In this document: piece after piece, positions 14,203 to 23,669 of the stretch
Layout of the letters: the number at the start of each line of letters is the position of its first letter
How positions within the stretch are numbered: position 1 is the first letter of the stretch
Source of the DNA: a virus
Lineage: Duplodnaviria > Heunggongvirae > Uroviricota > Caudoviricetes
Reading direction: 5' to 3' (one strand)
Virus record (IMG/VR): IMGVR_UViG_2537562015_000010
Length of the DNA: 27,511 nt
The notes under the pieces: model-generated
What the model was told of the DNA's origin: nothing
Databases searched by the model: none
What the model saw: the letters and a program-made list of their open reading frames with translations, nothing else
Translations under genes and position numbers: made by a program

Positions 14203-15248
14203 TGAGCAGAAAAAATAAAAAAGTGCGCATGAGTTCACGCATTGATCTCGCTGATGCGCTCAGGAAAGAATCATCGCTCAGTGCATTCACATTTGATGGT
14301 CCTTATCGCCTGACCGGGCATGACCTGCTGGACAATATGTACTGTGCTGATAACGGGCGGTGGTATGAAACCCCGGTGGACTGGTACGGTCTGGCAAGAG
14401 CCGCCCGGCAAACGTCCTGGCATCAGTCTGCGCTTTACTTTAAGCGCAATGTATTGCTCGGTTGCTACATCCCGCACCCGCTGCTTTCCCGGCAGGATTT
14501 CTCGGCGCTGGCGCTGGACTGGTTTGTGTTCGGTAACGCATTCCTTGAGCTTCGGAGTAATATGCTCGGCGAACCACTTAAATTACGGCACGCACTGGCG
14601 AAATACGTGCGACGCGGAAGCGATCTTGAATCATGGTGGTATGTGCAGGATGGCAAGGACGCGTTTCAGTTTCGCCCTGGCAAAGTGTGCCACCTGATGA
14701 ATCCGGACATTAACCAGGAAATTTACGGCATGCCGGAATATCTTGGCGCATTACTCTCGGCCAGCCTTTCTCATTCGGCGGACATGTTCAGAAAACTGTA
14801 CTACGACAACGGATCCCACGCCGGGTGCATCATCTACATCGGTGCAGCGCAGGTAAACCGCGAAAGCATGGACTCCCTGAAAGAAACGCTACAGGGGGCA
14901 CGTGGTGGTGGTGCGTTTAAAAACGTGCTCATTCATGCGCCCAACGGGGGCAAAGAGGGGGTGCAAATTTTGCCGTTCCAGCAGATCACCGCAAAAGATG
15001 AGTTCATGAATGTTAAGGCGGCATCCCGTGATGATGTGCTGGCTGCGCACCGCGTTCCGCCGCAACTGATGGGGGCGATGCCGGGCGAAAAAAGTGCGTT
15101 TGGTGATGTGGAGAAGGCCGCGCGGGTTTACGCAATTAACGAGCTGATGCCCGTCATGGAGGCCATGAAGCATATCAATGACTGGCTTGGCGAAGAGGTG
15201 ATCCGCTTTAACCCTTACGCACTGTTAGATACCCAGCCCACATCCTGA
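14202..15248 (+). CDS. Q: Portal protein, P2 gpQ-like
   Basis: 348 aa, co-directional with and coupled to P; followed by the cos region. Confidence 0.9.
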   Translation: MSRKNKKVRMSSRIDLADALRKESSLSAFTFDGPYRLTGHDLLDNMYCADNGRWYETPVDWYGLARAARQTSWHQSALYFKRNVLLGCYIPHPLLSRQDFSALALDWFVFGNAFLELRSNMLGEPLKLRHALAKYVRRGSDLESWWYVQDGKDAFQFRPGKVCHLMNPDINQEIYGMPEYLGALLSASLSHSADMFRKLYYDNGSHAGCIIYIGAAQVNRESMDSLKETLQGARGGGAFKNVLIHAPNGGKEGVQILPFQQITAKDEFMNVKAASRDDVLAAHRVPPQLMGAMPGEKSAFGDVEKAARVYAINELMPVMEAMKHINDWLGEEVIRFNPYALLDTQPTS

Positions 15249-15720
15249 CGCGCTTCGCTTGTCTGCTGCTTCGCCGGGGCATAAAAAATTTATGCCCCGA
15301 CTCTCCAGCTCCTGTATCAGTCAGATAATTTCACGACGCTTTCCTGCTTATTGCCATCATCGACGGTCAGACTCTTACGCAATCCCACTGCGCTGACTGC
15401 ATGTTCTCGCCGCCTCAGTGCGATTTTGACGGCCTTACCTTTCACCCCATCAAACCAGAATCCCTCACGTATTTTTCACGCTCAGCGTGAGAAATACGGC
15501 CATTCTGTCGTGTCGCTGCGACATCGTTAAGGGAACGCTATTTACCCCCTGAAACGCGGGCTGTTCCCCCGTCACCTGCGCGCAGAAAAAGCGCGTTTTT
15601 TTGTGCACGCACGGATCCTTGACGGATCCAGCCGCCACGCGGGCCGGAAGGGCAAAAAGTCGTTCAAAAAAATTGTGCAAATTTGTGCACTATTGTGCAG
15701 TCAAAAAATTGCCACATGTT
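15249..15720. other. Predicted cos / packaging region (exact cohesive-end site not identified)
   Basis: Non-coding region between the portal gene and the cargo, where P2 carries cos; contains a 29-bp dyad at 15469-15497, ACGGATCC at 15611-15618 and 15622-15629, and TTGTGCA at 15601, 15673, 15683 and 15693. Confidence 0.5.
15276..15298 (+). other. Perfect 10-bp stem hairpin 28 nt after the Q stop
   Basis: GGGGCATAAA-AAA-TTTATGCCCC; no U-run follows, so it may be a weak terminator or part of the cos/packaging signal. Confidence 0.4.
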
Positions 15721-15879
15721 GAATATTGCAGGTTAGCTTTAAGTTAGTTTAACTAAAATTTTCAGTGAATCGGGCGAAGTGGAGCTGTGAGCATAAAATC
15801 CTTGTTCACTAAGCAACATTATCTCAGTACATATTTGAAGCTAATTCCGCATGTGGCGATTTTTATGCAGGTGCATGAT

Positions 15880-15911
15880 ATAAGCAAAAGCCCGCCACAT
15901 CTGGCGGGCTT
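15880..15911 (-). terminator. Rho-independent terminator of the cargo operon
   Basis: 10-bp stem AAGCCCGCCA / TGGCGGGCTT with loop CATC; on the minus strand it is followed by TTTTGCTTAT; about 55 nt downstream of the ASCH gene stop. Confidence 0.55.
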
Positions 15912-15964
15912 CAGCGAAACGGTCCTTAAACGATCATGCAGAACCATGCAGCAAAGTCATGCTC

Positions 15965-16342
15965 TTATCCGCGTATATACCTAAAGGACTGAGGTGGTAC
16001 AGCGCCAGGTATCAATTCATTAAGTGGAATTGGAGTATCATAGCGCAGAGGGTTTTTTACTTCTATTGCGAATCCCTTGTCTCTTTCTGAAAAATATTCA
16101 TCAAAAAAATCCCGCGTAATACCTGCATACTTTTTTGTCATATTCCATAATTCATCTGGCTGAGATGACAAAACCTTTTCGATTTCAAACTCACCAATTA
16201 CCTTTCCGACGGGCATTGTTGCATAAATAATAACCGCTCGGACTTCTTTGTTCCGAAAAATTGTCTTCCTGAATTCGAATTTTTTATATCCATTTAAAAT
16301 GGATTCAGCGAACTCTGGTTTAATCGACAATAAAATTTTCAT
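15965..16342 (-). CDS. ASCH (PUA-like) domain protein, cargo gene 2
   Basis: 125 aa; N-terminus MKILLSIKPEFAESILNGYKKFEFRK carries the ASCH signature G-x-K-x-x-E-x-R; AT-rich codon usage; ATG at 16340-16342 overlaps the upstream gene by 23 nt. Confidence 0.6.
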   Translation of the reverse strand: MKILLSIKPEFAESILNGYKKFEFRKTIFRNKEVRAVIIYATMPVGKVIGEFEIEKVLSSQPDELWNMTKKYAGITRDFFDEYFSERDKGFAIEVKNPLRYDTPIPLNELIPGAVPPQSFRYIRG

Positions 16343-17375
16343 TAACCTTTCCCGCGCTTAAAACAGCTTTGAAGTGAATATCACTTAACGTGAAGAACCC
16401 TGAATAGCTTGGAGTATAACCTAAAATACTCAACAATTCATCTCTAATTATTCTTTTTTGCAAAGGGAAATTGTAAGTTAACTTAATTACATGTGGAGGA
16501 TAACATCTGCTATAATAAGCATGTAATTCTTCATCAGAAAAAATACTGGCGCCTCCACAATAAGACTTAAACTCATCATATGATAAAAATTCTCGAATGT
16601 TTTTATACTCTTGTAATGTACAAACAGAAGTAACCACCGACCGATATTTCGCCGCTCCCTGTCCATCTGTCGTTCGATAAATAATTATATTATCTCCTGG
16701 CTGAAGAAGCTCCATGCCTTTCATCGCGCCAATATATATCTTATGAATACTATTAGTATAAGTAACATCTTCTAAAATAGAATCATTTTCATTTTTTAAA
16801 ATTGACTCCGGGAAAAGCCTTGAATGAAACTCAGGTTTAATGGCTAATAAAAAATTTCTTCCATTCATTTTTATCATAGGATAATTATTATAAAATGATG
16901 CTGCTGATGGCTTCCAGTTAAAATCCTTAAAGTAGACACCTTCACAACCGTTTTCCGTCTCAAGATTTTTTCTTGAACACAATTTAAAACCATAGCGTTC
17001 AAGTAAACGAATCAATCCTTGATGTTTGTCAAAGATAGTAACGTACACTTCCTGAATATCATGAGGCATTGCAAAATCAAATATTTTTCTTACAAATCTC
17101 TCCCCCATTTTCGTTCCACGAGCATCTATTTTAAATGTTCCGCATTTAAGACGTTTTTTCATAGGGAAAGATGGGGTCATGTCATTTAATTCTTCATTTT
17201 CAATTTTGAGGTATAAAAAACCATCTATTTTTCCATAGTCATCATAAGATACGTATGCTTTCTCGTTTCTTTTCTTTAAGAACCAGCTTTCAAAAGTTGG
17301 GTAGTCATTTTTAAGTGAGTCAAAAAAAACATCTGAGAGGTCAACCTTCCCAAATTCGACATAACTAAGAGACAT
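16320..17375 (-). CDS. Two-domain cargo protein: N-terminal GNAT-like acetyltransferase fold plus C-terminal divergent ASCH-like domain
   Basis: 351 aa; the segment RGTKMGERFVRKIFDFAMPHDIQEVYVTIFDKHQGLIRLLERYGFK resembles GNAT motifs A/B; the C-terminal half begins LLAIKPEF, paralogous to the downstream ASCH protein but lacking the G-x-K-x-x-E-x-R motif; ATG at 17373-17375 with AAGGA upstream; AT-rich. Confidence 0.5.
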   Translation of the reverse strand: MSLSYVEFGKVDLSDVFFDSLKNDYPTFESWFLKKRNEKAYVSYDDYGKIDGFLYLKIENEELNDMTPSFPMKKRLKCGTFKIDARGTKMGERFVRKIFDFAMPHDIQEVYVTIFDKHQGLIRLLERYGFKLCSRKNLETENGCEGVYFKDFNWKPSAASFYNNYPMIKMNGRNFLLAIKPEFHSRLFPESILKNENDSILEDVTYTNSIHKIYIGAMKGMELLQPGDNIIIYRTTDGQGAAKYRSVVTSVCTLQEYKNIREFLSYDEFKSYCGGASIFSDEELHAYYSRCYPPHVIKLTYNFPLQKRIIRDELLSILGYTPSYSGFFTLSDIHFKAVLSAGKVNENFIVD

Positions 17376-17425
17376 TGTGCCATCCTTTTCAGTAGGTATT
17401 TTGCAAAAAAACGTTACTGTATCTC

Positions 17426-17453
17426 AAAATATATGTAAATAAACTTAGATCAA
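17426..17453 (-). promoter_or_regulatory. Candidate sigma70 promoter for the cargo operon
   Basis: On the minus strand TTGATC-N16-TATTTT, about 45-50 nt upstream of the cargo ATG, in an AT-rich spacer. Confidence 0.3.
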
Positions 17454-17491
17454 AAAAATGCTTACTAACGCTTTGTCTTACCGGGGCTGTG

Positions 17492-17551
17492 TGTGTCGAA
17501 ATACTCGCTTAGTGGCAGGGTGATAACTACATCTACCTCTACTGGTGCAAT
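17492..17551 (-). pseudogene. About 60-nt relic of a parM-like gene (recombination scar at the cargo boundary)
   Basis: By hand alignment, 17492-17551 is about 83% identical (50 of 60) to 18539-18598 inside the intact parM-like gene; no ORF spans it. Confidence 0.5.
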
Positions 17552-17589
17552 ATCAGACTCTGCCCGGCGCAGAGTATTCCGACTGTTGG

Positions 17590-17901
17590 TCATTGAGGGA
17601 ACATGGCCTGTATATTCTTTTTCATCTGTGTAACGTTGTTGTTCTCTGTATCCTGCTGTGGTGATTTATTTCGTGGCGTTGGTGTGAGCGGCTGGCTGAA
17701 TCCGCTTTCAGGCCATTCAGCCAGCCAGTAAGCAAAGGCAGGATCGCTTTTAATGAGTGCCAGTCCAGCCAGAAAGGCCGCGCGTTGCGCGCGGCTACGT
17801 TCAGAGGCTGGCAGGCTGTCGAGGTAATTACACGCCTCCCGTTCACTATTGACGGCGGCTGGCTTCAGATAGAAACTTATCCGTCTGGTTGGTGTCGTCA
17901 T
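17590..17901 (-). CDS. parR: ParR-like centromere-binding protein (ribbon-helix-helix)
   Basis: ATG at 17899-17901 with AAGGAG 7 nt upstream, 5 nt after the parM stop; RISFYLKPAAVNSEREACNYLDSLPASERSRAQRAAFLAGLALIKSDP resembles plasmid R1 ParR (TIAFKLNPDV...LDSIPQGERSRLNRAALTAGLALYRQDP); the longer ORF-track form overlapping parM is rejected. Confidence 0.65.
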   Translation of the reverse strand: MTTPTRRISFYLKPAAVNSEREACNYLDSLPASERSRAQRAAFLAGLALIKSDPAFAYWLAEWPESGFSQPLTPTPRNKSPQQDTENNNVTQMKKNIQAMFPQ

Positions 17902-17905
17902 TGGT

Positions 17906-18865
17906 TTACTCCTTGTCCATTGCGTACAGCCCATTAACCAGAGCAAACTGTGGCACCCCGTCCGCGATGAAAGTCGCATTAACTCCGCAGGCTTCGCGGA
18001 TAGCGGGTGCCACAATCTCCGCCCCGCCACCGACAACCATCACCCGTCCGTAACCCGAAAAACCCGCCAGCGCGCGGATCACGCGTTGTTTCAGTGTTTC
18101 TTCCTTTTCACGAATAACCGCCATCAGGCTGGCGTAATGCGCGTCATTGTGGATGTGCTGGCGCAGCCAGGCTTCATCATGGCGATGTTCGATAATGGTA
18201 TTGGCGATGTGGTGACTGGTGCGCATACCGTTAGTGGCCATCACCGACAGTACGGCATCGGCCATCAGAGAAACGCCTACGTGTGGATCGCAAAACACCT
18301 GGCTGATACCTGCCAGTTGCCCCTGAACCTTTGCCACATCCAGCGTGGTTCCGCCCAAATCCACAATCAGCAGGGATTCAAACGGACTCATGTCAGCCAG
18401 TGCCTTAAAGCCAGCCGGAATGGATTCAGGCATAACCCGCACGTTACGGATAGTGAATGCTTCGCCGTTCTGGTACTCCACCGGGCGCATGACGTTCGCT
18501 TTTTTGCGGTTGATGTTGGCCATGTCCGGCTGTGCGTTTGTGTCGAAATATTCGCTCAGTGGCAGGGTGACAACCACATCCACCTCCTGTGGTGTGATGC
18601 CTGATTTGACCAGCGCGTGATGAATGGCAATGACATTCACATCGCTGTACTGGTATTGCGTGTCGGTCGTCTGGACAAAGCGATCGCTGACCGGATCAAA
18701 ACCATAGCGCACGCCATCAAGCATGTAGTTCGCGGGCTGCGTGCCACCGAACGGCGCAGACCATTCCGACTTGAAGCTGTTCGGGCTGATGGCGTTGCGG
18801 CGTTCGCCGTTCTCAGTCCATGCCAGCTTGATGTTGGTGGAGCCGTCATCGATACAAATTTTCAT
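17906..18865 (-). CDS. parM: ParM/StbA-like actin-type segregation ATPase
   Basis: 319 aa; N-terminus MKICIDDGSTNIKLAW...ISPNSFK...YQYSDVNVIAIHHAL resembles R1 ParM (MLVFIDDGSTNIKLQW...); ATG at 18863-18865 with AAGGA upstream. Confidence 0.8.
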   Translation of the reverse strand: MKICIDDGSTNIKLAWTENGERRNAISPNSFKSEWSAPFGGTQPANYMLDGVRYGFDPVSDRFVQTTDTQYQYSDVNVIAIHHALVKSGITPQEVDVVVTLPLSEYFDTNAQPDMANINRKKANVMRPVEYQNGEAFTIRNVRVMPESIPAGFKALADMSPFESLLIVDLGGTTLDVAKVQGQLAGISQVFCDPHVGVSLMADAVLSVMATNGMRTSHHIANTIIEHRHDEAWLRQHIHNDAHYASLMAVIREKEETLKQRVIRALAGFSGYGRVMVVGGGAEIVAPAIREACGVNATFIADGVPQFALVNGLYAMDKE

Positions 18866-18894
18866 GTCGCTTTTCCTTATGTTGATTAATTAAT

Positions 18895-19005
18895 CGTTTA
18901 CGGGATTCTGAAATCCCGTTTTTGCCTGTTTTATGCGCGCTTCATATATCGCGGCGCGTTTTTTGCTCATTTACGGGATTTGTGAATCCCGTTTCTGTCT
19001 GTTTT
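18895..19005. repeat. Two 38-bp direct repeats, each containing the palindrome ACGGGATT-N4-AATCCCGT
   Basis: Repeat 1 at 18895-18932 (A-parM intergenic) and repeat 2 at 18968-19005 (inside the last codons of gpA); 31 of 38 positions identical; 73-bp period. Confidence 0.5.
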
Positions 19006-21782
19006 TTGTTTCCACTGGTCAGGCCACCCCGCAGCAGGTCTGCTTTGCGGCGGGCGCGTTCAGTGGTTTCACTGATTCTCTGTGCGTGCTCTGCGTCGCG
19101 GATGGCGCGCAGCATGTCAGAAAGCACGGTAACGGGGGTTTTCATGGTGTTCTGGTCTTGCTGAAGTGTGGATGCCAGGCGTGCGGCGGCTTCGGGGTCT
19201 GACGCCCCCAGCTGTTCCAGATAGCTGGCGACCGGGTTATGGCAGATCTCCGTGCTGCTTACGCCGTGGTTACGGCTCAGGCGCTGCCAGAGCTGCGTGA
19301 TCCGGCTGTCCGGTCGGGTATCCGGTTTGCGTACAATTTCAAATCCCTGCGGTGCAATGATGCTGCCGTCAACGTACAGACTGCCGCCCCGTAACAGGTG
19401 CTGCATCTGCTGTTCACCGATATGCAGGCCGAGAGATTCAGCAGACTCCCGCCATTCTTTAGCGAGTAATTCGTGGTTATCAGGCAAAGGCCGCGGCTGT
19501 TTGCGGCTCTGTGTCCAGTTCTGCATTTCATCACTGTTGTTTTTTGCCTGTTTGTCACGCAGCGAACGCATCAGCGCCCGGCGTTCGTGCCGTTTCAGTG
19601 AGCGCATCCATTCGTTCACTTCAACACCGTCAGGGATCTGCGGCCACGGTGCTGGCCGTTCTTCCGGCTGTTCTGTCCCGTTGTTGTCCGTTTCCTGTAC
19701 ACGGGGACAGTTATTGCCACGAGTCCAAGGGGCGGCAGGGCCGCCCTGAAGGTCAAAACCATTTTCGCGGGTGCTGTCTTCCGCTTCCGGTTTGCGTCTT
19801 ACCAGCTTCCAGTTATCCGGATGCGTGCACACACGGGAGGATTCCCCGATGAGTGGTGACCAGATCCCATAAATCTGTACGCTCTGTTCGCCGTAATCGT
19901 TCAGCTCTTCTGCGAGGTCGTAGGCGGTGCGAATCAGGTAGTCTTTGCGTGGAACAAGTACGCCACCCTGTTTCTCAATGTAGGTGGCAAAACATCCGGC
20001 ATCAGCGGCAGCGAGTACCGCATCCATTGCGTCATCCTTCAGCCGTTGCGGGCCTTCCGGGTTGCGTGCCATCTGGCTGGCAAGGCGGCGCAGTTCACGC
20101 CACACCTGACGGGAGGGGATACCAAAGAACTGGAACTGGCGGACCCGGTGAAGGCGCGCCCAGCCGATGGCGCGTTCCACGCTCTCGGCCATTGATTTTC
20201 CGGTTTCGTGGTCAACGCGTGGCTTGCCCGTTTTCGGGTCGATGCCATCCACGGCGCGGCTGTCCAGGTTCTTTCCGATGTAGGTGGCGATGTAGCTGGT
20301 TGGCGTGCCTTTTGAGCCGTCGACGTACTCCGCCTTAAAACGCGGAGTTATGTCATCGCCCAGCTCGTGGCGGTCTTCCTGAATGGCAATATCGCGGGTG
20401 TGGGACACGATGGTGTCGATTTCTTCCGGATGTGCAAAGACCATCATATGCCAGTGCACAGTGCCGTCATGGTGAGGCTCCACCGTGCGGATGCCATACC
20501 AGCGAAGACCGTCGCGGTTCAGTTTTTTGCGGACCGCCGCAAAAAACGTGTTAACCAGGTAATCGCTGGAGTCGCGCATGGTGGCCCCGTTCCATTTGGG
20601 ATTCGGATGGCCGTTCTCTGTTGTGGCGTGGTATTTTGACGGGCAGGTGACAGTCAGAAACACCGCTTTGTCGCCACGGGCTTCGGCCAGAAGTTCCAGT
20701 CCCTTCATGGTGGCCATCATTTCTGCCTTACGGTGAACCGGGTTACTTACTCCCGCGTAATACACCGTCTCGAGATCAATCGTGAACCCGTCTTCGTTTT
20801 CCAGCATGAAACTTTTCAGGAAATCGCGTGTTTTCTCGCGCTGTGCGCGAAACTCGCTTAACGCGTCCTGGCTCAGATAGGGTGATGTTTTTCTGGAAAC
20901 CAGACAGGCGGCGCGGAGTTGTTCTTCCCGCCACTCGCAACGTAACAGCCACAGTTTGCGCTTCCACCAGTCCGCACAGGTCAGGCGAAGGATTGCACCC
21001 GGCAGCAGCTCTGTGTCCGGTTCGTTCCTCCGGTCTTTGTCTGTTGTCAGTACGTCATAATGCGGAGGCATGGCGTGCAGGTGTAACGCCATGCGGGCCA
21101 GCATCTGATACGCCTTCAGGGTTACATCCATGGTCAGCTCGCCATCGGTCGCGCCAAAGCCGTCGCAGAGTTTTTCGAAGGTGCTGCTGAACATTGCCGC
21201 CGTCATGGTGGCCAGCGTCTGTATCTGGCGCTTGTTAAGCTGCGGCAGGTAAAGCAAATCGTCCAGGCGTTCGCGTCCGGCAAGGGCGCGATAACCCGGT
21301 GTCAGCCAGCGGCTGTCGGTGCGCTCCAGACGTTCGAATATTTTGCGCAGGGTTCCGCGCGCGTAGCGTTCAGCCTGCCAGCTCTTTTTGCCTTTCTGGC
21401 GATCGGCTTCCTGTTTTTTGCGCAGGAAAGAGAGGTGGCGGCTCAGTGGTTCACGCAGATAAACAGGTAGTGCCTTTAGTGTGGCAAAGGCACGGGCTAC
21501 TGGGTCTTGTTCTGTTGCCCGGCGCTTACTGATGATGCTCTGTGTCAGCTTTTCACGCTGTCCGGCTTCCTCAAGGGATGCCATGAGTTTTTTACCCATG
21601 GCGGATTGTGCGAAAAAGGCTTCTTCCTTCGCTTCCTGTTCTTCCTGTGCCCTTTTGTCTGCCTCAAGGTAGTAACGGATGGCGCGTTGCAGGTCGGTTT
21701 CAGTTTCCTGCCTGCGCTCCGTAAATCTGGCCGGATCAATGGCTGGCCGTGGTTCATTCCAGCTCCATGCAAACTCGCTCAT
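18942..21782 (-). CDS. A: Replication initiator (rolling-circle nickase), P2 gpA-like
   Basis: RTVEPHHDGTVHWHMMVF (HUH motif) and SYIATYIGKN match P2 gpA; preferred start is ATG 21780-21782 in an ATGA overlap with the upstream ORF (the ORF track begins at GTG 21809); about 946 aa, longer than P2 gpA at both ends. Confidence 0.85.
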   Translation of the reverse strand: MSEFAWSWNEPRPAIDPARFTERRQETETDLQRAIRYYLEADKRAQEEQEAKEEAFFAQSAMGKKLMASLEEAGQREKLTQSIISKRRATEQDPVARAFATLKALPVYLREPLSRHLSFLRKKQEADRQKGKKSWQAERYARGTLRKIFERLERTDSRWLTPGYRALAGRERLDDLLYLPQLNKRQIQTLATMTAAMFSSTFEKLCDGFGATDGELTMDVTLKAYQMLARMALHLHAMPPHYDVLTTDKDRRNEPDTELLPGAILRLTCADWWKRKLWLLRCEWREEQLRAACLVSRKTSPYLSQDALSEFRAQREKTRDFLKSFMLENEDGFTIDLETVYYAGVSNPVHRKAEMMATMKGLELLAEARGDKAVFLTVTCPSKYHATTENGHPNPKWNGATMRDSSDYLVNTFFAAVRKKLNRDGLRWYGIRTVEPHHDGTVHWHMMVFAHPEEIDTIVSHTRDIAIQEDRHELGDDITPRFKAEYVDGSKGTPTSYIATYIGKNLDSRAVDGIDPKTGKPRVDHETGKSMAESVERAIGWARLHRVRQFQFFGIPSRQVWRELRRLASQMARNPEGPQRLKDDAMDAVLAAADAGCFATYIEKQGGVLVPRKDYLIRTAYDLAEELNDYGEQSVQIYGIWSPLIGESSRVCTHPDNWKLVRRKPEAEDSTRENGFDLQGGPAAPWTRGNNCPRVQETDNNGTEQPEERPAPWPQIPDGVEVNEWMRSLKRHERRALMRSLRDKQAKNNSDEMQNWTQSRKQPRPLPDNHELLAKEWRESAESLGLHIGEQQMQHLLRGGSLYVDGSIIAPQGFEIVRKPDTRPDSRITQLWQRLSRNHGVSSTEICHNPVASYLEQLGASDPEAAARLASTLQQDQNTMKTPVTVLSDMLRAIRDAEHAQRISETTERARRKADLLRGGLTSGNKKQTETGFTNPVNEQKTRRDI

Positions 21783-22168
21783 GGCTGGTATCCCGTCACG
21801 CGCTGCCACTCCTGCGAGAAGATGGCGGAAAGGCGGTTAAATTCAGCGGTGTATTCACTCAGCGAGGCACACCCGCCAGCAGTGCGATGCGCCAGCATTG
21901 CCGCGAATACGGAGGCCGGGGAGTCGTAATACGCCAGCAGTGATTCGCCGTGTGGTGTCAGGCAGTGCAACGCCAGCCCGTGTGGTGTGAAGTCCACGCG
22001 GTAGCAGTCGTCTACTGTGAAATAAAGGGTGTCCACATTCTCCGGTTTTGTAGTGCGTGCTCTGTTGTCACGACCACGGATATAAAGATCAAATAATCCC
22101 TGAAGAACGGGAGCCAGACGGGTGTCCTGTGTGCGCACCCATCTTGTGAAGTCATGAGCGTCAATCAT
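21779..22168 (-). CDS. Hypothetical early protein
   Basis: ORF coupled to gpA by an ATGA overlap; first ATG at 22166-22168 (the ORF track begins at TTG 22198); no recognisable motif. Confidence 0.4.
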   Translation of the reverse strand: MIDAHDFTRWVRTQDTRLAPVLQGLFDLYIRGRDNRARTTKPENVDTLYFTVDDCYRVDFTPHGLALHCLTPHGESLLAYYDSPASVFAAMLAHRTAGGCASLSEYTAEFNRLSAIFSQEWQRVTGYQP

Positions 22169-22838: not shown

Positions 22839-23669
22839 TTACTTCACCGGAACAAACGGAACAGCGGTGTTACTGGTCATGTATTGCGGTAGCGTGCCGT
22901 TCCATTTGTTAATCGCTTCCAGCTCCATAACGCCGGGATTCTGGCGCAGAGCTTCACCGCGTAAACGAATGGCGTCGGCTTCAGCCTGGGCTTTTGTGCG
23001 AATGGCATCGGCCTGTCCGGCTGCTTCTGCGCGTAGCATGTTGGCTTCTGCTTCACGCTGCTTGACTTCCTGTTCGCGTTGCAGGGTTTTCTGGTTTGCC
23101 GTGACTTTGGCATTAATGCTGTCGATAACGGTTGGCGGGTATTCCGGCTTACCCACATAAGAGAGGCTCATTACCTGAATGCCGATAGGTGTCATTTCTG
23201 CCTGAATGTCTTTAAGTGCTGAATCCAGCAGTTCAGACTTGCCACCGTCGATAAATTTATCGGTGGTCATTTTGCTGGCCAGTCGGTTGAGTGCGTCGGC
23301 GATCTTCTGGCGCAGGTCAGTGTCGGTAATGTCATCCACGCCTTTGCGGTAGGTCTGAAACACTGTAGTAACTTTGGATGGATCAACCTTGTAGGCCACA
23401 CCGATGTGATAGCCGATGGTTGTGCCGTCACTCATCTGAAAGCTGAACGGCTCATCGTAGGTCTTCATTTGTTTGAAGGTCGGGAAGATGTAAACCTCGG
23501 TATTCCAGCCAGTCCAGTAGCGACCAACGCCAACCACTTCGCCAACGCCTTTGTCGTCGCCCAGCTTGTTGACTTTGATGCCCACATTACCTGGCTCAAC
23601 GCGATCGCAGCCAACCAGCAGGATGGCGGCAAAAAGCGGGAGAATCTGAAAGAGTCTGAATTTCTTCAT
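22839..23669 (-). CDS. SPFH/band-7 (prohibitin/HflC-like) lipoprotein
   Basis: 276 aa; signal peptide with lipobox LLVGC; central SPFH-like region and a C-terminal Ala/Glu/Arg-rich coiled coil (QREAEANMLRAEAAGQADAIRTKAQAEADAIRLRGEA). Confidence 0.7.
   Translation of the reverse strand: MKKFRLFQILPLFAAILLVGCDRVEPGNVGIKVNKLGDDKGVGEVVGVGRYWTGWNTEVYIFPTFKQMKTYDEPFSFQMSDGTTIGYHIGVAYKVDPSKVTTVFQTYRKGVDDITDTDLRQKIADALNRLASKMTTDKFIDGGKSELLDSALKDIQAEMTPIGIQVMSLSYVGKPEYPPTVIDSINAKVTANQKTLQREQEVKQREAEANMLRAEAAGQADAIRTKAQAEADAIRLRGEALRQNPGVMELEAINKWNGTLPQYMTSNTAVPFVPVK

Follow-up and report, generated by a model that had tools for sequence, protein, structure and literature searches.

A predicted type II (ParMRC) actin partition cassette with a probable centromere in P88-like, P2-type phages

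A parM-parR gene pair is located directly behind the replication gene of a P2-type phage. Judging from its sequence, the pair appears to be a genuine and intact actin partition cassette of the plasmid type (type II, ParMRC) with a probable centromere, and it probably works. The window considered here, i.e., the whole stretch of 27,511 nucleotides (27.5 kb) that was analysed from IMG/VR record IMGVR_UViG_2537562015_000010, lies wholly inside phage sequence. The best explanation, to which a probability of roughly 0.6 is assigned, is that ParMRC is a fixed cassette of P88-like phages, which is read through from the early operon and transiently segregates extrachromosomal circles of the phage.

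The proposed mechanism includes the following reactions. Dimers of ParR would bind two phased 42-nt repeats just upstream of parM. Filaments of ATP-bound ParM would be captured by the conserved C-terminal tails of ParR and, once captured, would drive apart two DNA molecules that carry the repeats, in the manner known from plasmid R1. Both proteins would be made during replication of the extrachromosomal phage genome, which follows infection or excision, and not in the quiescent lysogen. Circular phage genomes could be distributed in this way within the cell or between daughters, which would constitute a transient episomal or carrier state; a permanent plasmid prophage would not be supported by the cassette. 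A point against this explanation is that a cell in the lytic cycle has no obvious need for partition.

Neither the occurrence of partition genes in P2-like phages nor the idea of an episome is new, and both are in print. The partition genes of P88-like phages were noted, and an episomal state was proposed, by Rousset 2022; P88 was flagged as possibly having 'episomal and integrative states' by Pfeifer 2020; and the gene of PhiSM was listed as a fitness factor by Magaziner et al. 2019. In terms of discovery, nothing is added here beyond the existing annotation and two published remarks. The cassette deserves attention as a very common element of E. coli that is clearly maintained by selection.

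Genes of the cassette and their phage context

The cassette and the gene preceding it are arranged as follows:

17590..17901, minus strand: parR, encoding a 103-aa ribbon-helix-helix adaptor
17906..18865, minus strand: parM, encoding a 319-aa actin-fold partition ATPase
18942..21809, minus strand: gene of the gpA replication endonuclease (Pfam Phage_GPA, 3.6e-131), with parMR directly downstream on the same strand

An earlier reading of this DNA, made from the letters alone (the sequence-only reading), had proposed a ParM-like ATPase and a ParR-like adaptor, and both open reading frames are found with exactly the coordinates and lengths given there. ParM contains the Pfam domains StbA_N (1.8e-82) and ParM C-terminal domain (1.3e-68). 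R1 ParM, whose structure has been solved (1mwk and others), is aligned to residues 2-316 (E 9e-93) with 147 of 317 positions identical (46%), and this full-length homology, together with the Pfam domains, confirms the actin ATPase. The phosphate-1, connect, phosphate-2 and adenosine motifs of an actin-fold ATPase could be recognized in the protein; the ATP-binding motifs IDDGSTNIK, MPESIPAG, DLGGTTLD and VVGGGAE are conserved in the alignment to R1 ParM. The sequence-only reading had made the assignment conditional on such motifs, and all of them are present in the 319-aa protein.

ParM is 99-100% identical to ParM of P88, PhiSM and other Xuanwuvirus members, and 98-100% identity at the protein level is kept across loci where the adjacent ParR varies. 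Comparison of parM with nine relatives revealed 8-45 synonymous and 0-26 non-synonymous differences (dN/dS 0-0.15). ParM is under strong purifying selection. The parM gene was intact at 319 aa in all 89 copies examined and parR in 86 of 87, in a sample picked for close ParM matches and biased for that reason towards intact genes.

Alternatively, the module could be an inert passenger of plasmid origin, carried along by the P88 backbone without any function. A phenotype has never been reported in the literature on ParM of P2-like, P88 or Xuanwuvirus phages, in which passing mentions only, and no experiments, were found, and an inert module would fit this silence. Such a passenger is hardly credible in view of the low dN/dS values, the intact reading frames (albeit in a sample selected for close ParM matches), the occurrence of the cassette in roughly one in four complete E. 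coli genomes and its composition, which is the same as that of the backbone.

ParR belongs to the Pfam family Plasmid_stab_B (E 1e-25), and its residues 6-63 match the pB171 ParR/StbB structure 2jd3 (E 0.002); the adaptor identity proposed earlier is supported by both matches. Its gene is located immediately downstream of parM, with a gap of 4 nt. The protein comprises an N-terminal DNA-binding domain (approximately residues 1-62), a hypervariable linker and a conserved C-terminal tail, KKNIQAMFPQ. This pattern fits the known layout of a DNA-binding domain, a flexible linker and a ParM-binding tail. The tail, in the general form KKNIQxxFP(E/Q/K), is kept despite the hypervariable linker and is common to ParR of pOXA-48, with which overall identity is 33%; it would be a putative ParM-binding peptide. 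The variant NIQAMFPQ carried by the window is rare (3 of 87).

ParR is much more variable than ParM. Its N-terminal strand, RRISFYLKP, is almost invariant, and the rest of the N-terminal domain is represented by at least two allelic types, with the window carrying a rarer allele (53% identical overall to P88 ParR). Across loci L001-L091, the region equivalent to window positions 17590-17901 comprises mosaic forms beside the two N-terminal types, and its linker is hypervariable. This diversity could correspond to incompatibility groups or only to recombination at the edge of a hotspot. In megablast comparisons between phages the homology ends within parR or shortly behind it, so this gene is considered the border of the variable gpA-gpQ hotspot.

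The integrase-bearing, P2-like context proposed earlier is also borne out. The gpA gene, annotated as replication endonuclease in relatives, lies directly upstream of parM, and Ash-like, SPFH, DUF4761, Cox-like, HTH repressor and tyrosine integrase genes are found beyond it by Pfam. The P2 capsid, terminase and portal block is known from the annotation of a 96%-identical prophage. The DNA search revealed 14 records of P88-group phages that are 96-99% identical to the window, including P88 and Citrobacter PhiSM, both of which are active, temperate, integrating phages carrying the parMR cassette. The cassette genes are already annotated as ParM or partition protein in P88-group phage records. 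By these matches the element can be assigned to the P88-like P2-type phages (Peduoviridae, Xuanwuvirus).

The SPFH gene of the early region (window 22839-23669, minus strand) encodes a 276-aa protein of the SPFH/Band 7 family (7.6e-31). Its equivalent in P88 is annotated as a lipoprotein or a serine protease.

Candidate centromere and expression signals

Two 42-nt direct repeats upstream of parM likely represent the centromere (candidate parC). The repeats and the translation signals of the cassette are located as follows:

18894..18935, no strand: proximal 42-nt repeat, candidate parC half (direct repeat family D2, inverted repeat I1)
18967..19008, no strand: distal 42-nt repeat, candidate parC half, with its palindrome at 18973-18992; overlaps the last gpA codons
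18873..18878, minus strand: AAGGAA, Shine-Dalgarno sequence of parM, read from the sequence and nearly invariant in alignments
17909..17914, minus strand: AAGGAG, Shine-Dalgarno sequence for parR, read from the sequence in the last two parM codons

The two repeats are 81% identical and 73 bp apart, and each contains a 20-nt palindrome, ACGGGATT-N4-AATCCCGT. The proximal repeat falls into the 76 bp that separate parM from the gpA stop, and its palindrome has the form ACGGGATT-CTGA-AATCCCGT (18900-18919). Only two occurrences of the palindrome, both upstream of parM, are present in the 27.5-kb window, compared with 0.1 expected by chance. In 55 distinct upstream sequences the proximal palindrome is kept with single-base variants. 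Each variant is a transition in one arm only, and neither compensatory changes nor a protein-specific signature could be seen; the variants do not discriminate an RNA hairpin from a protein-binding site.

Some prophages carry other sequence upstream of the cassette, and their homology to the window sets in precisely where the distal repeat has its outer edge. In the E. coli SWHEFF_58 prophage (L010), parMR is placed behind an extra gene and a different gpA, which is annotated there as an unrelated, shorter protein of 768 aa; a remnant of 69 nt ahead of parMR carries the annotation of a partial replication protein (L010 6001-6069). A second differing context with the same breakpoint is represented by u30 among IMG/VR contigs, and u54 behaves likewise. 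Since homology begins exactly at this edge in differing contexts, the repeats are concluded to travel with parMR. The breakpoints delimit a mobile unit composed of the repeats, parM and parR (approximately 17590-19010), as expected of a parC-parM-parR cassette. The last ~66 nt of the P88-type gpA also travel with parMR into other contexts, where an annotated pseudogene stub is left (L010, u30).

The palindromes could be interpreted in another way, with the genes still functional. They would act as terminators of the + strand, which shield gene A from antisense transcription coming from the late operon or the hotspot, and the ParR sites would be located elsewhere, for example, in AAAC(A/G)G motifs or outside the cassette. 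On the + strand, each of the palindromes runs into a stretch of T and is scored as terminator-like, and the hairpins are stable (about -10 to -11 kcal/mol). Seven AAAC motifs are distributed across 112 nt with spacings of 7, 10, 33, 30, 10 and 22 nt, mostly in helical phase, and the AAAC(A/G)G motifs within the 42-nt repeats are similar to the 10-bp, A-rich iterons that precede parM in pOXA-48. However, a need for + strand termination is not evident in the 3.6 kb upstream, the hotspot genes and parMR all being on the minus strand. The AAAC motifs, moreover, are located inside the same 42-nt repeats, so the two interpretations overlap, and the repeats are co-transferred with parMR. A terminator function with ParR sites elsewhere is thus quite unlikely.

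The AAGGAG hexamer encodes K318-E319 of ParM and is followed by TAA, ACCA and the parR ATG; its distance to the parR start is 7 nt. It had been placed 5 nt after the parM stop in the sequence-only reading, which is wrong, as it forms the last two sense codons before the stop. Translational coupling of parM and parR via this site is probable from the arrangement.

Upstream of parM, no sigma-70-like promoter scoring at least 9 of 12 was revealed by a simple consensus search, which could miss a weak or ParR-regulated promoter; the best candidates (7-8 of 12) are badly placed. A coding-strand (minus) terminator between gpA and parM was not found either. Since neither promoter nor terminator was detected and the cassette is situated directly behind A, parMR is most likely read through from the early operon containing A. 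In P2, gpA belongs to the repressed early operon. A separate promoter within parC, under autoregulation by ParR, is typical of R1, although it is not strictly defining for a type II system.

Rfam scanning of positions 15000-19500 yielded one sub-threshold hit only, outside the cassette. It corresponds to the Pseudomonas rnk leader (15878-15970, minus strand; 35.4 bits against a gathering threshold of 55, E 0.0022), is located just downstream of an ASCH gene and is probably a chance match.

Distribution, lifestyle and hotspot neighbourhood

Of 5426 complete E. coli genomes, 1303 (~24%) carry the cassette, at 1443 places, and O104:H4, O157:H7 and ST131 strains are among these carriers. For the P88-type A gene, matches to its 3' part (at least 80% coverage) were counted in 1355 complete E. 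coli genomes. It follows from these two numbers that the cassette keeps almost strictly to the lineage of the P88-type gpA, unlike hotspot cargo, which is shuffled. With 52-57% GC it matches the phage backbone in composition, whereas the two adjoining cargo genes have 31-34%. Among 50,697 phage records this type of ParM is confined to the P88 group and D6. Searching genome contigs with a single protein gave only three near-identical loci.

In PLSDB (72,556 plasmids), seven close matches were found, most of which are either fragments or replicons of very large size. No other record of the plasmid collection exceeds 80% DNA identity to the cassette; all seven are copies of P88-like phage, and nothing was found there between approximately 80% and 90% identity. 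Recent capture from a known plasmid was considered and rejected, since such intermediates are lacking in the plasmid collection.

A 98%-identical P88-like prophage of the E. coli type, with gpA and parMR, is contained in a 226-kb contig labelled Vagococcus sp. WN89Y (L008, NZ_JBQPOM010000071.1). A contaminated or wrongly labelled assembly is a more probable explanation than a Firmicute host.

A dual lifestyle, in which P88-like phages persist stably as low-copy plasmids partitioned by ParMRC, corresponds to the proposals of Rousset 2022 and Pfeifer 2020, and precedents are provided by D6, with its homologous StbA/ParM (48%), and by the P2-like plasmid prophage KS14. One complete circular copy has been deposited as a plasmid: pZ1323PEC0009-2 (L005, NZ_CP148288.1), a 34,461-bp circle from a cat E. 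coli isolate, is a complete P88-like genome with integrase, cox, repressor and parMR, and it is the only phage-sized circle among the seven close PLSDB hits. The circle may represent a genuine episome, or just the DNA of an induced phage. Several structural genes are absent from its gene table, which could be due to frameshifts or to an incomplete PLSDB table.

Such a dual lifestyle is nevertheless unlikely, as 1441 of the 1443 cassette copies in complete E. coli genomes are chromosomal and the integrase, Cox and repressor genes are intact. No plasmid-type Rep or initiator that could be used under repression was found in the scanned early-region proteins or among the listed genes of the complete relative, whose PLSDB gene table is incomplete; the rolling-circle gpA is the only replication protein there and a theta-type initiator was not found, whereas KS14 has RepB and ParA. 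By analogy with P2, gpA would be repressed in the lysogen, and a repressed genome would not replicate. The population data argue against a routine plasmid lifestyle. A routine plasmid prophage, of the kind known from the phage-plasmids P1, N15, SSU5, D6 and KS14, is disfavoured by the chromosomal copies, by the integrase, Cox and repressor genes and by the lack of a plasmid-type initiator. Transient segregation of extrachromosomal circles is favoured over stable plasmid lysogeny as the best estimate.

Beside parR, the following trace of a second parM is located:

17489..17584, minus strand: decayed second parM fragment (direct repeats D1, 59 nt, 85%, and D3, 20 nt, 90%, versus the resident parM)

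The fragment is derived from a diverged parM and lies between parR and low-GC cargo. It consists of two pieces, which correspond to codons ~33-38 and ~91-110 and between which ~140 nt have been lost (ORF translation VEVDVVITLPLSEYFDT), and it is probably a recombination scar left by cargo acquisition at the hotspot edge. The cargo is represented by two genes downstream of parR (window 15965-17375, minus strand), which encode a 351-aa protein and a 125-aa ASCH-domain protein and match a PADLOC candidate defence system (PDC-M11A, 3.9e-131; PDC-M11B, 5.7e-51). The PDC-M11 genes have 31-34% GC versus ~55% for the phage and are rare, since just two STEC genomes among the 5426 complete E. coli genomes carry them at this locus.

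This neighbourhood allows for a competitive function, in which ParR and ParM of the prophage would disturb the partition or replication of incoming related phages, satellites or plasmids with the same centromere. The cassette is situated at the edge of the known gpA-gpQ anti-phage hotspot, next to the PADLOC candidate system, and the diversification of ParR beside a nearly invariant ParM could reflect specificity or incompatibility groups. However, neither ParM nor ParR has a PADLOC match, and the DNA-contacting strand RRISFYLKP is almost invariant between ParR alleles. All seven plasmid records above 80% DNA identity to the cassette are P88-like phage copies. The cassette is tied to one gpA lineage, unlike the shuffled hotspot cargo, and an own promoter for expression in lysogens was not detected. 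Exclusion of competitors is therefore very doubtful as the function of the cassette.

More tentatively, and going beyond the transient segregation of circles preferred here, the P2-type lineage may keep ParMRC for a purpose of its own that is unrelated to plasmid life, such as separating or positioning monomeric replicated circles, or delivering unintegrated or excised genomes into both daughters. About a quarter of E. coli strains would, in that case, carry an unstudied cytoskeletal function of an otherwise chromosomal virus. Retention in daughter cells during a transient carrier state would be expected to raise lysogenisation or reduce prophage loss. A hidden episomal phase in P2-like phages would affect current views of prophage stability, pseudolysogeny and the boundaries between phages and plasmids.

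Comparison with known systems

The ParMRC system of R1/NR1 (parM-parR-parC, also named stbA-stbB) shares with the phage cassette the gene order, a full-length ParM homolog (46%), the Pfam family of ParR and the position of repeats upstream of parM. Unlike the R1 system, the phage cassette belongs to an integrating phage, where a gene for rolling-circle replication immediately precedes it; its repeats are long, carry palindromes and number only two, and a promoter of its own could not be recognised.

ParMR of pOXA-48 (IncL/M) is among the nearest plasmid relatives found (ParM 52%, ParR 33% identical). Its ParR ends in the same KN(I/V)Q..FP tail, and two iteron clusters upstream of its parM are 73 bp apart, which is the spacing of the phage repeats. 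On the other hand, pOXA-48 ParR is longer (147 aa, with a longer linker), its iterons, direct repeats of 10 bp, surround a region that clearly resembles a promoter, and DNA identity is only ~66%.

Phage-plasmid D6 (P1-like) is, outside the P88 group, the sole phage among 50,697 with this ParM type. Its StbA/ParM is 48% identical and is described in GenBank as 'similar to phage P88 StbA protein'. D6 differs as a 91-kb plasmid prophage whose parC is composed of several TCTCA-type iterons; several short iterons are likewise present in the parC region of pOXA-48, in contrast to the two large repeat units of the phage cassette.

Burkholderia phage KS14 resembles the element in combining a P2-like virion module with partition genes, and its maintenance as a plasmid prophage has been shown experimentally. 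Its genes are of another kind, namely, ParA (type I), a RepB initiator and a serine recombinase; neither ParMR nor replication by gpA only is found there.

P88, PhiSM and other Xuanwuvirus members carry the same cassette in the same place as the window. The window differs from the P88 group in its rarer ParR allele (53% to P88 ParR) and its hotspot cargo, PDC-M11.
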